A stretch of 64,000 bases of DNA, from assembly GCF_988243305.1 (NCBI RefSeq), contig NZ_OZ547137.1. One strand, 5' to 3'. This document shows, one piece after another, positions 5,215 through 10,716 of this stretch (position 1 is its first letter; the number at the start of each line of letters is the position of its first letter). Source of the stretch: a plasmid. Position numbers and translations under genes: made by a program. The notes under the pieces are model-generated. The model was not told where the DNA came from and did no database searches. It saw only the letters and a list, made by a program, of their open reading frames with translations.

Positions 5215-7082
5215 AGATCGGGATAGGGGCTGATCTCACGATTAGCCTCCTCCCACACCACCGTACATACGGGTCCGTATACGGCAGTTCGGTTATGTTT
5301 ATCGTCGCCTGCCTATAACTCCGGTAGGCCCAGTCTGACGAACAGGCGATTGGGAAGTGCTATGCTCAGTGCCGGACTACAGCTTATCCGCCATTGCTTA
5401 TGGCAACTCCCTACCGTTTGCGCTGCAAGGTCTTTGCTTACTCCCCGTCTGCGCAACTCTTTGAAGCGCTTGCTGCCCGTTTTCCACTGTTTCCACAGGA
5501 CACTTCGCAACCTTCGCCTTATCCACCTGTTCAGATCTCTCATCAGCGTTTGCCACTGGTTCAGTCCATAGTAGCTTTTCCATCCCGTCAGATATCGCTT
5601 TAACGGTTCGATAAGCTGCTCTAGGCTTTTGCCCGTGTTACGCCCCGTCAGTTCTCTTATCCGGGTTTTGAACCGCTTCACCGATTCCGGCAACACCACA
5701 CACCACACCTTTCTGCCCCTCCTGAAGCTGTAACCCAGGAACTTACGCGTCTCCGGAAGCGCTACCGCGCTCTTCTTCGCGTTGAGCTTCAGCTTCAGTT
5801 TCCGGTTCAGCCAGTGCGTCAGCCCCGCCATCATACGGTTGCCTGCCCGTTCACTCTTCACATACACATTACAGTCGTCTGCGTAGCGGGCGAACTTCAG
5901 GCCGCGTTTCTCAAGTTCCTTATCGAAGTCATCCAGCAGCAGATTCGATAACAGTGGCGACAGTGGGCCGCCCTGCGGCGTCCCTTCTGTCACCGGCATT
6001 ACCAGACCCGCTTCCATCACACCTGCATTCAGGTACCCGCGGATAAGTGACAGCACCCGTTTATCCGATACTCGTTTCGCTATCCGGCTCATCAGTACAT
6101 CGTGATTCACCCGATCGAAGAACTTTTCCAGATCGAGGTCAACCCCCCAGCTGTAGCCCGACTCGATGTATTTCTGAGCCTGCTTCACTGCCTGATGCGC
6201 CGAGCGTCCGGGCCGGAACCCGTAGCTGCTGTCGCTGAACGTCGCATCCCACTGTGCCTGCAACACCTGCATCATCGCCTGCTGGATAAAGCGATCCACC
6301 ACCGTCGGGATGCCCAACAGACGTTCGCCGCCGCCGGGCTTCGGGATAGTCACTCTTCTTACAGGGGATGGGCGGTAGCTGCCGGACAGCAGTTGCGCTT
6401 TCAGTTCCGGCCAGTGGTGTCTCAGATAGTCCGGCAGTTCGCTTACGCTCATGCCGTCGGCTCCCGCCGCACCTTTATTGGCCTTCACTCTTTTCAGGGC
6501 ATGCCTGAGGTTGACTGGTTCGCAGATGGCTTCCATCAGCCACGCTGTTGACGATGGACTTTCTCTGGTCGTCGGTGCCTGCACGGTTTCAGCCCCCTGA
6601 GAACCGGCGTCAGGGGCTTCACCCCGTCTTCCTGCATCAGGGTCGCGATACGTTTTCTGCTGCATGACCGTTCAGAACCTCCGCTGATACTCGTCACTCA
6701 TTACCGTTCGGGCCTTCAGACGCGCCTGTCCTACTATGCCCTCTGCTGACTCCTGTCCGCCGGTCAGCGCACCTTACGGTACGCTCAGTTCTGAATACAG
6801 AACGCCAGACAGGCCTCCCGGGGTAAGCTCAGCCGCTTTCACCACACACCTGCCCAATCTACCACCCCGGCTCTTGATGGTTATGGCCTTTGCAATCAAT
6901 GGCTTGCTCCGCCAGCCGGGTAGGCCTCATATCGGATTTCTGTTCGTCAGGTCATGGTTTTGCTCCACGCTTCCTTCAGATCCCGCCTCACGACGGCACC
7001 CTTGCGCTTCACGAGTCCTTCGCCACCATCAGGCTGGACAGGGGACTTTCACCCCCGAGCTGCTGAGCATGCCCGGCACACC
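5215..7082 (-). mobile_element. group II intron (bacterial class C-like; boundaries approximate)
   Basis: 5-prime end GTGTGCCGGGCATG... on the minus strand sits right after a terminator hairpin; domain V-like stem-loop (rc of 5255..5292) and domain VI downstream of the IEP ORF. Confidence 0.75.
5313..6665 (-). CDS. group II intron-encoded reverse transcriptase/maturase (no endonuclease domain evident)
   Basis: 450 aa with RT motifs (GIPTVVDRFIQQA, FARYADDCNVYV with YADD) and a C-terminal maturase X domain. Confidence 0.9.
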   Translation of the reverse strand: MQQKTYRDPDAGRRGEAPDAGSQGAETVQAPTTRESPSSTAWLMEAICEPVNLRHALKRVKANKGAAGADGMSVSELPDYLRHHWPELKAQLLSGSYRPSPVRRVTIPKPGGGERLLGIPTVVDRFIQQAMMQVLQAQWDATFSDSSYGFRPGRSAHQAVKQAQKYIESGYSWGVDLDLEKFFDRVNHDVLMSRIAKRVSDKRVLSLIRGYLNAGVMEAGLVMPVTEGTPQGGPLSPLLSNLLLDDFDKELEKRGLKFARYADDCNVYVKSERAGNRMMAGLTHWLNRKLKLKLNAKKSAVALPETRKFLGYSFRRGRKVWCVVLPESVKRFKTRIRELTGRNTGKSLEQLIEPLKRYLTGWKSYYGLNQWQTLMRDLNRWIRRRLRSVLWKQWKTGSKRFKELRRRGVSKDLAAQTVGSCHKQWRISCSPALSIALPNRLFVRLGLPEL

Positions 7083-7140: not shown

Positions 7141-7178
7141 TTAACGTACGTTTTCGTTCCATTGGCCCTCAGCCCCCT
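7141..7178 (-). repeat. Tn3-family terminal inverted repeat (second copy, inverted relative to 3880..3917)
   Basis: Reverse complement reads agggggctgagggccaatggaacgaaaacgtacgttaa, matching the IR at 3880. Confidence 0.7.
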
Positions 7179-7429
7179 GGTATTGCTTGCGCCAGAGAAA
7201 TAACTGGCTGGCTGCCACACCGTGTTGCCGGGCAACAAGGGAGGCCGTCATTCCCGGTTCAAAGCTCTGCTGAACAATAGCGCTCTTTTCCTGTGTAGTA
7301 CGCCGTCTGCGTTTCTCCGGTCCTAAGACATCAATCATCTGTTCTCCAATGACTAGTCTAAAAACTAGTATTAAGACTATCACTTATTTAAGTGATATTG
7401 GTTGTCTGGAGATTCTGGGGGCTAGTCTA
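7177..7429 (-). mobile_element. insC: IS2 5-prime fragment (IRL and truncated insC)
   Basis: rc of 7381..7429 matches the IS2 left end (tagactagcccccagaatctccagacaaccaatatcacttaaataagtg); ORF 7141..7383 encodes [18 protein letters not shown]...LFLWRKQYQ, then runs into the Tn3-like IR. Confidence 0.85.
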
Positions 7430-7624
7430 TCTTCAGCTTACGGGCTATCTGACGATGTGACCAGCAGTATGGTGGCAAAGCCATATCAGTCCTTTCTCTT
7501 TGAGTTCACCTAGCATTGTTATCTCCTTAAAAAATTGAGGCGACAACTATGCTGACACAGAGGGTTATTGATCTTACCCAGCAATAGTGGACACGCGGCT
7601 AAGTGAGTAAACTCTCAGTCAGAG

Positions 7625-7933
7625 GTGACTCACATGACAAAAACAGTATCAACCAGTAAAAAACCCCGTAAACAGCATTCGCCTGAATTTCGCAGTGAAG
7701 CCCTGAAGCTTGCTGAACGCATCGGTGTTACTGCCGCAGCCCGTGAACTCAGCCTGTATGAATCACAGCTCTACAACTGGCGCAGTAAACAGCAAAATCA
7801 GCAGACGTCTTCTGAACGTGAACTGGAGATGTCTACCGAGATTGCACGTCTCAAACGCCAGCTGGCAGAACGGGATGAAGAGCTGGCTATCCTCCAAAAG
7901 GCCGCGACATACTTCGCGAAGCGCCTGAAATGA
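7625..7933 (+). CDS. insE: IS3 OrfA
   Basis: [50 protein letters not shown]... (ORF track begins three codons earlier at an alternative start). Confidence 0.95.
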
Positions 7934-8796
7934 AGTATGTCTTTATTGAAAAACATCAGGCTGAGTTCAGCATCAAAGCAATGTGCCGCGTGCTCCGGGT
8001 GGCCCGCAGCGGCTGGTATACGTGGTGTCAGCGGCGGACAAGGATAAGCACGCGTCAGCAGTTCCGCCAACACTGCGACAGCGTTGTCCTCGCGGCTTTT
8101 ACCCGGTCAAAACAGCGTTACGGTGCCCCACGCCTGACGGATGAACTGCGTGCTCAGGGTTACCCCTTTAACGTAAAAACCGTGGCGGCAAGCCTGCGCC
8201 GTCAGGGACTGAGGGCAAAGGCCTCCCGGAAGTTCAGCCCGGTCAGCTACCGCGCACACGGCCTGCCTGTGTCAGAAAATCTGTTGGAGCAGGATTTTTA
8301 CGCCAGTGGCCCGAACCAGAAGTGGGCAGGAGACATCACGTACTTACGTACAGATGAAGGCTGGCTGTATCTGGCAGTGGTCATTGACCTGTGGTCACGT
8401 GCCGTTATTGGCTGGTCAATGTCGCCACGCATGACGGCGCAACTGGCCTGCGATGCCCTGCAGATGGCGCTGTGGCGGCGTAAGAGGCCCCGGAACGTTA
8501 TCGTTCACACGGACCGTGGAGGCCAGTACTGTTCAGCAGATTATCAGGCGCAACTGAAGCGGCATAATCTGCGTGGAAGTATGAGCGCAAAAGGTTGCTG
8601 CTACGATAATGCCTGCGTGGAAAGCTTCTTTCATTCGCTGAAAGTGGAATGTATCCATGGAGAACACTTTATCAGCCGGGAAATAATGCGGGCAACGGTG
8701 TTTAATTATATCGAATGTGATTACAATCGGTGGCGGCGGCACAGTTGGTGTGGCGGCCTCAGTCCGGAACAATTTGAAAACAAGAACCTCGCTTAG
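7930..8796 (+). CDS. insF: IS3 OrfB (DDE integrase domain)
   Basis: 288 aa with DDE region (WAGDITYL...HTDRGGQY...[11 protein letters not shown]); ATGA overlap with orfA. Confidence 0.95.
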
Positions 8797-8955
8797 GCCT
8801 GTGTCCATATTACGTGGGTAGGATCATATTACCCGATCTCGATGGACGTTATTGAGTGATCTCCTTCCATGAAGCTCGCCACGGGAATATCTGCGGCAGC
8901 GGGCCAGTAATGGGGTAAGTGATAGAGTTAACTCTGTGTTTTATGTGGGGATGAT

Positions 8956-9200
8956 ATGGAATTAAAACAAGACATCGAAAAAGAGATTATAAAATTAATA
9001 ATATCAGAATACATTAGTACACTTTATTATATACATCTAATTGTACAATTGATGTATAACAAAAGAAGGAAGTAAAATATCATTAGAAATGAACTCATAT
9101 TTCTTGAGAGAGACGTTAATATATCAGTAAAGTGCAAGGATATTCAGGAAGGACGTATATCGCAATCAGATTAAACAGCGCTTGATAACTCGTATCAATA
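8956..9200 (+). pseudogene. aggR-like 5-prime gene fragment (AraC/Rns-family paralog remnant)
   Basis: ~80% nucleotide similarity to the first ~230 bp of aggR at 22100; translation MELKQDIEKEIIKL... stops prematurely. Confidence 0.7.
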
Positions 9201-9493
9201 TCTATATGATAGGGTTTTTCAGCACATTATATTCATCAGGATTTTATTTTAAAAGCTAATAAAAGCTATTTTATATTGCTATGACATAACTTCTATGTAG
9301 CCATACTAATGATAAACTCTCTTTTCAGAGAGTTTTAACCCTTCGTTAATATTGCCAGTCAGCAAATCATATTCACCACGATATTGGCGTTATTGTTCAA
9401 CGCCAATATTTATTTTATTATTTCTAAAAATCTCCCTATACATTAGTTAATATAATAGCACTCCCCATTTTCAACTGAAAATTAGCGCATTAC

Positions 9494-10705
9494 TCATATC
9501 TGTGTAAATAAAAAAGGCTCCGTTTTTGACCTATTAAATAAGTCCATATCAATTTTCCAATTCTTGTCTATAAGAACTGTTCCACCATAATTTTGAATAT
9601 TAATAAGAGGGGTATTCGGCGAAACAGAGAATTTCGATAATATGCTTCCATTAATAAGGGTGTTGTCATATTTGTGATTGTCACTCAACCATGAATAATC
9701 GGATTGAACAATGGAGATATCTTTTCTTCGAGATTCACCCTCAGGAAATAATCCCTCATAACATATATGAATACTCATTTTAATGTTGTTGAAATCCAGG
9801 ATGTCCTGCTCATTATATTTCTTTTTATAATATAGAAAAGGTGATGTCGATGGTTCTGGTGAGTTATAAAAACTTTTCTTCTCAAAAAAAGGTATCAATT
9901 TGCTTTTTTGGTGGAGAAGAAACTCTTCTTTATGCCAGAAAGCAGACACTACGTTATTAATGTCTTGATATCCATAAAGATTCATTAATATCCCATATTT
10001 ATAGTGGAATCGATTATCTTTTAATTGCTTTAAGAGATGTTTAGTTCTTTCCTTTATATAATCATTCTTGTAACCGAAAAAAACATTTTCTGAGAGGATA
10101 ACTAGATCAACCTTCTTATTTCTGACGAATTCATTGAGATCAGTATAAAAATTACCTCTGACACCTACTTTTTTAAAATAAAGGCCAACCTGTACAATCA
10201 CAATGTTCAGAGGGGGATGTGTTATATTAACCGGTGTTTTCCATATTAGCGGAAATAATAATAACATAAGAGAACGGAGAAAAAATGATATTTTTAGACT
10301 AAATGTAACTGCAGGAATAAGATTTAATATTAATAAATTTAAAACAGGAATATCTGTTCTTGGTAAGATGTCAGGAAAATCATAATATAAAACAATCAAT
10401 GGATTTAATGGTATAAACATCCCGAAGGCGGATAATGAGGTTAATGAAAGGGCATGTAGACATGCTCCAAGTACCCCATAAGAACTCAGGAAACCATATA
10501 TGACAAGGGTTACCATATTATAGCAGAGTAATCCAAATGAAAGGTATAAATTAGAACTGCCATAATATTCTAAAAAACCACTAGAAAAATACATCCCAGA
10601 GAAAATGATAGAGTATAAAAGAATAGTAAAAAAAAGACTCACTCGTCTTTTTCTTGCTGCGAGATAATAGGCAAAAAAATACAATAAGACAATAGCGAAC
10701 TTCAT
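9494..10705 (-). CDS. aatD: AatD, membrane-anchored Lnt-like N-acyltransferase (CN-hydrolase fold)
   Basis: N-terminal multi-TM region plus a C-terminal domain with an ICYEGLFPE motif like the Lnt active-site Cys; last gene of the aat cluster. Confidence 0.8.
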   Translation of the reverse strand: MKFAIVLLYFFAYYLAARKRRVSLFFTILLYSIIFSGMYFSSGFLEYYGSSNLYLSFGLLCYNMVTLVIYGFLSSYGVLGACLHALSLTSLSAFGMFIPLNPLIVLYYDFPDILPRTDIPVLNLLILNLIPAVTFSLKISFFLRSLMLLLFPLIWKTPVNITHPPLNIVIVQVGLYFKKVGVRGNFYTDLNEFVRNKKVDLVILSENVFFGYKNDYIKERTKHLLKQLKDNRFHYKYGILMNLYGYQDINNVVSAFWHKEEFLLHQKSKLIPFFEKKSFYNSPEPSTSPFLYYKKKYNEQDILDFNNIKMSIHICYEGLFPEGESRRKDISIVQSDYSWLSDNHKYDNTLINGSILSKFSVSPNTPLINIQNYGGTVLIDKNWKIDMDLFNRSKTEPFLFTQI

Positions 10706-10716
10706 AAACTGTAAGC

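Follow-up and report, generated by a model that had tools for sequence, protein, structure and literature searches.

The sequence at positions 8939–9276 is very probably a non-functional pseudogene of an activator gene of the aggR family (AraC/XylS family, Rns subfamily). It was found in a stretch of 64,000 nucleotides (the window) from an enteroaggregative E. coli (EAEC) virulence plasmid of the pAA type, which also carries an intact aggR gene. The relic spans the whole gene, from the ribosome-binding region to the 3' UTR, in three collinear blocks. It displays the marks by which bacterial pseudogenes are recognized: collinear homology with disabling lesions, relaxed constraint, and no intact orthologue at the locus. 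An earlier note on this DNA had proposed a relic of an aggR-type regulator gene, and the collinear homology, the frameshifts, the nonsense codons, and three deletions bear out this reading. The features discussed below are collected in Table 1.

Table 1. Coordinates of the relic, its parts, and its neighbors in the window
Feature	Position	Strand	Remarks
IS3 copy 1, later simple insertion	7569–8826	+	3-bp target duplication TAT (7566–7568, 8827–8829)
IS2-family transposase 3'-end scrap, ~50 nt	8871–8919	+	94–98% identity to annotated IS2 transposase genes; right inverted repeat of IS2 absent
Homologue of the 17 nt before the aggR start codon (ribosome-binding region)	8939–8955	+	relic TTTTATGTGGGGATGAT, aggR TTTCATGTGAGAATGAT
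Pseudogene segment A	8956–9180	+	aggR nt 1–~234 (codons 1–78); identity 84–85%
Residual ORF, 39 aa	8956–9075	+	MELKQDIEKEIIKLIISEYISTLYYIHLIVQLMYNKRRK; from the ORF list
Pseudogene segment B	9180–9245	+	aggR nt ~662–737, part of the second helix-turn-helix
Pseudogene segment C	9244–9276	+	aggR nt ~779–798, stop codon, and ~14 nt of 3' UTR
Terminator-like hairpin	9380–9410	+	12-bp stem, T-rich tail; consensus scan
aatPABCD	~9494–14455	-	
aatD	9494–10705	-	final gene of aatPABCD, convergent with the relic
aar	19987–20178		~1.9 kb upstream of the intact aggR
Resident aggR, intact, 265 aa	22100–22897	+	reference for comparisons; HTH_18 at residues 183–259 (Pfam)

Homology to aggR

A BLASTN search with positions 8821–9500 against the whole window matched 8939–9180 to 22083–22334, with 213 identities out of 253 (84%), 12 gap positions, and an E value of 5e-70. 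On the aggR side, this match begins 17 nt before the ATG and ends at nt ~235. Two shorter matches are collinear with it: 9180–9245 against 22762–22839 (E = 1e-7), and 9244–9276 against 22879–22912 (E = 8e-4), the latter spanning the stop codon. Local-alignment scores were compared with those of 200 dinucleotide-preserving shuffles, yielding z = 84 for 8939–9180 and z = 14.7 for the two 3' blocks taken jointly. At the protein level, tblastn aligned AggR residues 3–78 with the relic (E = 9e-8), confirming homology to the AraC/XylS family. MAFFT misaligned the 3' blocks when applied to the whole gene, so the segments were aligned separately. The window contained no aggR fragments other than the relic.

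These results refine the initial description of the region. The similarity of about 230 bp to the 5' end of aggR, including the start codon, was confirmed, and the identity of segment A turned out to be slightly above the ~80% first claimed. The homology within the interval 8956–9200 is real, but its end was set too short, since the matches run to 9276. The term truncated does not hold at the 3' side either: both ends of the gene are present, and its middle is deleted (428 nt, followed by 10 and 41 nt).

Disabling lesions and the residual reading frame

Relative to the AggR frame, segment A carries 1-nt deletions, small indels, and a TAG nonsense codon at 9015–9017 (Q21*). Segment B starts directly after the junction of the 428-nt internal deletion, which removed aggR nt ~234–661. 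Within this segment, 10 nt were lost between direct repeats of GATATC, and there are two 1-nt deletions. Segment C follows a 41-nt deletion between GACTT direct repeats, and in it codon 265 has changed from CAA to TAA (Q265*). The location of the small deletion junctions at direct repeats (GATATC...GATATC and GACTT...GACTT) is typical of slippage. Altogether, 479 of the 798 coding nucleotides of aggR are deleted. Frame repair left 97 codons with 76% identity to AggR, at the price of ~8 frame-breaking indels and the two nonsense codons. Codons 79–220 are deleted, the remainder is frameshifted, and HTH_18 (AggR residues 183–259) is largely lost.

The reading frame that opens at the ATG at 8956 ends at a stop at 9075 after 39 codons, as the earlier note had stated. 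Only its first ~12 codons are in the AggR frame, which is then left through a 1-nt deletion in the A-run at 8991–8994. This is the longest ORF of the relic; an intact ORF of ~265 aa with a C-terminal double helix-turn-helix (HTH_18/HTH_AraC) is absent, and no Pfam domain was detected in the residual ORFs. The suggestion of an alternative AraC-family activator is not supported: the ORF lacks a Pfam domain, HTH_18 is for the most part deleted, and frameshifts and nonsense codons interrupt what is left. In a Logan-assembled strain (contig 475–693), a T-to-C change at 9069 removes the stop and extends the ORF from 39 to 72 aa. The 72-aa version has been called as a protein in a public collection.

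Upstream region and the IS3 insertion

The homology to aggR begins just 17 nt before the ATG, and the relic has neither the promoter nor the long 5' leader of aggR. For aggR of O104:H4, the transcription start was mapped 216 nt upstream of the ATG (gTSS_6649 versus the gene start at 6865; PMC5066232). Moving upstream from the relic, we found 19 nt without assignment, the IS2 scrap, 41 nt, and IS3. The scrap was aligned with two other IS2-end copies of the window (26033–26088 and 28623–28673). Insertion sequence debris, including this scrap, took the place of the upstream region of the relic. The copies at 26033–26088 and 28623–28673 (minus strand) are fuller IS2 right ends, and a reversed IS2 left-end remnant stands before IS3 (7141–7420). 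Amid the debris, ~2 kb upstream of the relic, a 450-aa ORF (5313–6665, minus strand) displays reverse-transcriptase/maturase motifs of a group II intron; a similar group II intron gene is located downstream of aatD in pMRE600-1.

The window contains three IS3 copies. Copy 1 sits 112 bp upstream of the relic, inside the older IS2 debris, and its site reads GAGGGT-TAT-[IS3]-TAT-TACCC. The empty site, GAGGGTTATTACCC, is present in O104:H4 pAA as well as in a Logan contig, both of which have the same relic. In 55989p, an independent IS3 lies 1 bp from this position and is inverted, its target duplication being ATT. Other plasmids carry IS1 at 8919 or another element at 9103. IS3 copy 1 is a late insertion, as shown by the empty sites and the independent insertions elsewhere, and its junction is therefore not the original edge of virulence DNA. 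Hence, the relic does not mark the boundary where IS3 copy 1 meets virulence DNA, as had been assumed: the element entered IS2 debris, and O104:H4 pAA has the relic next to an empty site. The position looks like an insertion hot spot for IS3, being occupied in the window (TAT) and in 55989p (ATT), and empty in O104:H4 pAA and the Logan contig.

Spacer toward aatD

The relic adjoins the aat cluster, and its placement just outside the cluster in the initial description was correct. It is convergent with aatD, and 217 nt separate its end from the aatD stop codon. This spacer is conserved at 94% in strain 042. Judged from its sequence and position, the terminator-like hairpin may once have ended transcription of the regulator gene, or it may act in both directions to keep the convergent genes apart. 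An Rfam search over 8700–9600 (E <= 1) gave no match. The spacer also contains a palindrome at 9315–9336.

Distribution

The 667-nt stretch at 8827–9493 is present at 97.9–99.7% identity in ~30 PLSDB plasmids, among them 55989p and every O104:H4 pAA record. At a query coverage of at least 80%, the matches comprise 32 PLSDB records, of the 55989 and O104:H4 types, and also 35 complete RefSeq E. coli genomes. Strain 042 retains only 9227–9493, where an IS66-family element cuts the relic. Six other junction classes (C700-09, p266917_2_01, pO86A1, pMRE600-1, pSCU-318-1, and p542093_2) diverge 15–155 bp after aatD; within 3.5 kb of aatD they contain no aggR-like DNA, and IS elements are found instead. 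A metagenome scan with the back-translated relic-specific N-terminus MELKQDIEKEIIK returned seven contigs, all with the same relic and the same 39-aa ORF. Since the 55989- and O104:H4-type plasmids share the same deletions and 042 keeps the tail, the decay predates their divergence. The nearly unchanged state of the relic in the 55989- and O104:H4-type plasmids reflects their recent common ancestor and not selection.

The check proposed in the earlier note, namely whether related plasmids carry an intact gene here, was carried out: these plasmids contain the same relic or IS elements, and no intact gene was present at the locus in the examined PLSDB junction classes, the seven metagenome contigs, and one Logan contig. 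A tblastn search of PLSDB with AggR revealed no paralogue that was both intact and of intermediate identity. Only one record, CP051693.1, fell in the 80–90% range, and it was dismissed as a two-piece frameshifted aggR match. A protein search with the frame-repaired N-terminus of the relic yielded only six candidates, which were partial AggR-like proteins and one relic ORF, and nothing closer than the CS22-linked regulator described below. Between ISEc45 and aatD, the RefSeq/PGAP annotation of NC_018666.1 has no feature, and we found no description of the relic in the literature.

Constraint and transcription

Substitutions between the relic and aggR are distributed over codon positions 1, 2, and 3 as 13:9:15, with no third-position excess. 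When the window is compared with O104:H4 pAA, 9 of 338 sites (2.66%) are different in the relic versus 28 of 5067 (0.55%) in aatPABCD. The relic thus diverged faster than its neighbors (Fisher p = 3e-4, or p = 0.05 if five clustered changes at 9183–9192 are counted as one event). In the comparison of lineages, 15 private changes fall on the relic branch and 3–5 on the others, which is what a pseudogene should show.

Neither a promoter nor a transcript of its own was found for the relic: upstream homology is limited to 17 nt, with IS2 and IS3 sequences beyond, and published dRNA-seq data for one strain are equally silent. In these data, obtained for O104:H4 pAA under one set of growth conditions, start sites are absent between 64130 and 65664 (PMC5066232). 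The relic corresponds to ~64399–64736 of that plasmid and lies inside this interval. The codon positions, the divergence, the ORF length, and the transcription starts all fit neutral decay.

Lineage of the relic

We compared the relic with related regulator genes over 324 ungapped sites, where the classic aggR alleles were those of the window, 042, and pO86A1. The relic is 84.3–86.1% identical to these three alleles, which are 96.6–97.8% identical to each other, i.e., they differ by 2.2–3.4%. Identity is 71% to cfaD and 88.9% to an AggR-like regulator linked to CS22. The latter (WP_032297045.1; pAST81_1, NZ_AP043642.1, 39814–40611; also contig ABVPNA010000171.1) is intact, with 265 aa and 91% protein identity to AggR, and is encoded beside an ANR gene and the CS22 (cseA) chaperone-usher cluster. 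PGAP names it 'helix-turn-helix transcriptional regulator'. At five sites, all classic alleles have a derived state, while the relic, the CS22-linked regulator, and cfaD agree. The aligned sites place the relic outside the group of classic aggR alleles. For classic aggR, the CS22-linked regulator, and the relic, the sequences resolve the branching order only weakly: five informative sites join the classic alleles with the CS22-linked regulator and the relic with cfaD, four join the relic with the CS22-linked regulator and the classic alleles with cfaD, and one joins the classic alleles with the relic and the CS22-linked regulator with cfaD. With its source outside the present-day aggR alleles, the relic goes back to a separate and older lineage of aggR-like genes or to a very old duplication.

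The relic shares the plasmid with aggR and is collinear with it between the ribosome-binding site and the 3' UTR (84–86% identity over the 324 sites). It differs from aggR in the absence of the aggR promoter and of a linked aar, in the loss of most of HTH_18, and in falling outside the classic allele group. The CS22-linked regulator is the closest intact relative found and shares with the relic the GGGG of the ribosome-binding region and the ...YIAIRLNS motif. In contrast to the relic, it is intact and has the usual place of such a regulator, after a fimbrial cluster and then an ANR gene; aat is not its neighbor. Because the two are 11% diverged, it is not the direct source of the relic. Near 8900–9300 we detected no ANR/aar gene or remnant, as tblastn with two ANR proteins matched only aar at 19987–20178.

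The nearest precedent comes from ETEC H10407, which has a second, disabled copy of an Rns-family master regulator gene alongside an intact copy on a virulence plasmid. This pseudogene, cfaD-2 (cfaD'), contains a frame-shift and has a functional ANR gene, rnr-2, linked to it (PMC5554520). In contrast to cfaD-2, the EAEC relic is far more decayed, with large deletions, has no ANR gene, and adjoins the aat operon.

Alternative explanations

The region is AT-rich, and the similarity to aggR could have been a matter of chance, of low complexity, which the earlier note had named as the outcome that would overturn it, or of an assembly artefact. All of these are refuted. An E value of 5e-70 and z = 84 against dinucleotide shuffles rule out AT-rich low-complexity similarity, the three blocks are collinear, and the sequence recurs in 32 complete plasmids that were assembled independently and in seven metagenome contigs. 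If the resident aggR had recently been duplicated in situ and the copy had decayed fast, this would account for the presence of both on one plasmid and for aggR being the best match of the relic within the window. However, the relic is 14–16% away from all three classic alleles, against the 2.2–3.4% seen among them, and is nearer to the CS22-linked regulator. It also shares ancestral states with cfaD and/or this regulator at the five sites where the classic alleles are derived. Moreover, the deletions common to the 55989- and O104:H4-type plasmids and the tail in 042 make it older than their split. A recent origin is accordingly highly improbable, and the duplicated regulator gene of the initial description, understood as a copy of the resident aggR, is probably not what the relic represents.

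Some properties of the relic count against the pseudogene reading: it has kept a start codon and a purine-rich ribosome-binding-like sequence, it contains a short ORF, and it harbors AggR-site-like sequences. Two FIMO-predicted AggR sites on pAA, ranked 8 and 19 out of 57, have no assigned gene (PMC5066232, Table S4). Both are located inside the relic, at 64438–64457 and 64565–64584, corresponding to ~8976–8995 and ~9103–9122 of the window. At 8995 the relic perfectly matches WWWWWWWTATC, the consensus of the AggR site (PMC6392122), and has a -10-like TATATA 22 bp downstream (8995–9033). With the homologous arrangement in aggR at 22140 and the terminator-like hairpin on the + strand, these sites could point to a cis-regulatory leftover, acting as an AggR decoy or giving rise to an AggR-dependent + strand transcript that runs toward aatD, stops at 9380–9410, and modulates the 3' end of the aat operon. 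We consider such a role very unlikely. AggR sites are degenerate, and many arise in AT-rich DNA, to which the site density in aat was attributed (PMC5066232); many predicted sites are non-functional (PMC6392122). The intragenic motif with its TATATA, in aggR as well as in the relic, may well be due to chance in AT-rich DNA. In addition, the O104:H4 map has no start in the relic, the relic diverges faster than its neighbors, and many pAA lineages have lost it through IS insertions, yet kept aat. Even less credible is a functional 39-aa protein, e.g., an N-terminal AggR fragment that disturbs AggR dimerization. The retained ATG and the purine-rich sequence upstream of it would suit a translated peptide, as would the presence of the ORF in all seven metagenome copies. 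On the other hand, just ~12 AggR-like residues precede the frameshift, a Pfam domain is absent, one SNP suffices to change the length to 72 aa, no promoter or transcription start is known, and the O104:H4 copy of the relic differs at nine positions.

At least the second of the two unassigned sites (64565–64584) is homologous to a predicted site inside aggR, at 7019–7038 in Table S4 of PMC5066232. The aggR-internal counterpart at 22140–22190 matches WWWWWWWTATC with one mismatch and has TATATA 22 bp on, a spacing as reported for AggR-dependent promoters. The GGGG in the ribosome-binding region of the relic is also found in the CS22-linked regulator.

Proposed course of decay

The homology, the lesions, the distribution, the faster divergence, and the late insertion of IS3 were observed directly; the lack of function and the following order of events are what we infer for the pseudogene. 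An aggR-like gene would once have stood tail-to-tail with aatD and would have lost its promoter region through insertion-sequence activity. Its present state would then have come about through point mutations, 1-nt slippage in homopolymers, and the loss of 428, 10, and 41 nt in three deletions between short direct repeats. No regulator would be made from the relic, which most likely has no role at present.

It is conceivable, though rather unlikely, that the aat/dispersin-export module once had an aggR-like regulator of its own, of which the relic would be all that remains, with pAA having been built from a fimbrial and a dispersin-export module, each with its own Rns-family activator. In that case, one regulator would have become redundant and decayed once AggR controlled both modules. 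In a weaker variant, the AggR-site-like sequences of the relic would still bind AggR. Homologues of aatD offered no support for aat modules with a regulator of their own: in three ETEC or other plasmids, with 40–60% AatD identity, no AraC-type gene was found within 4 kb downstream. A degenerate AatD-like fragment 1.1 kb from an AraC-type gene was discarded as not being a convincing parallel for an aat-linked regulator.

Implications

The relic is an ordinary, previously unannotated pseudogene and a marker of plasmid history, of modest practical use. As a lineage marker, it shows deletions common to the 55989- and O104:H4-type plasmids, leaves its tail in 042, and has been erased by IS elements elsewhere. 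It points to a third aggR-like lineage besides classic aggR and the CS22-linked regulator. Its recognition would mend the annotation, and it accounts for the two orphan predicted AggR sites. Detection of aggR is the defining test for typical EAEC. With ~235 nt at 84% identity and long exact runs, the relic could cause cross-hybridization or mis-mapping in aggR PCR or read-based typing.
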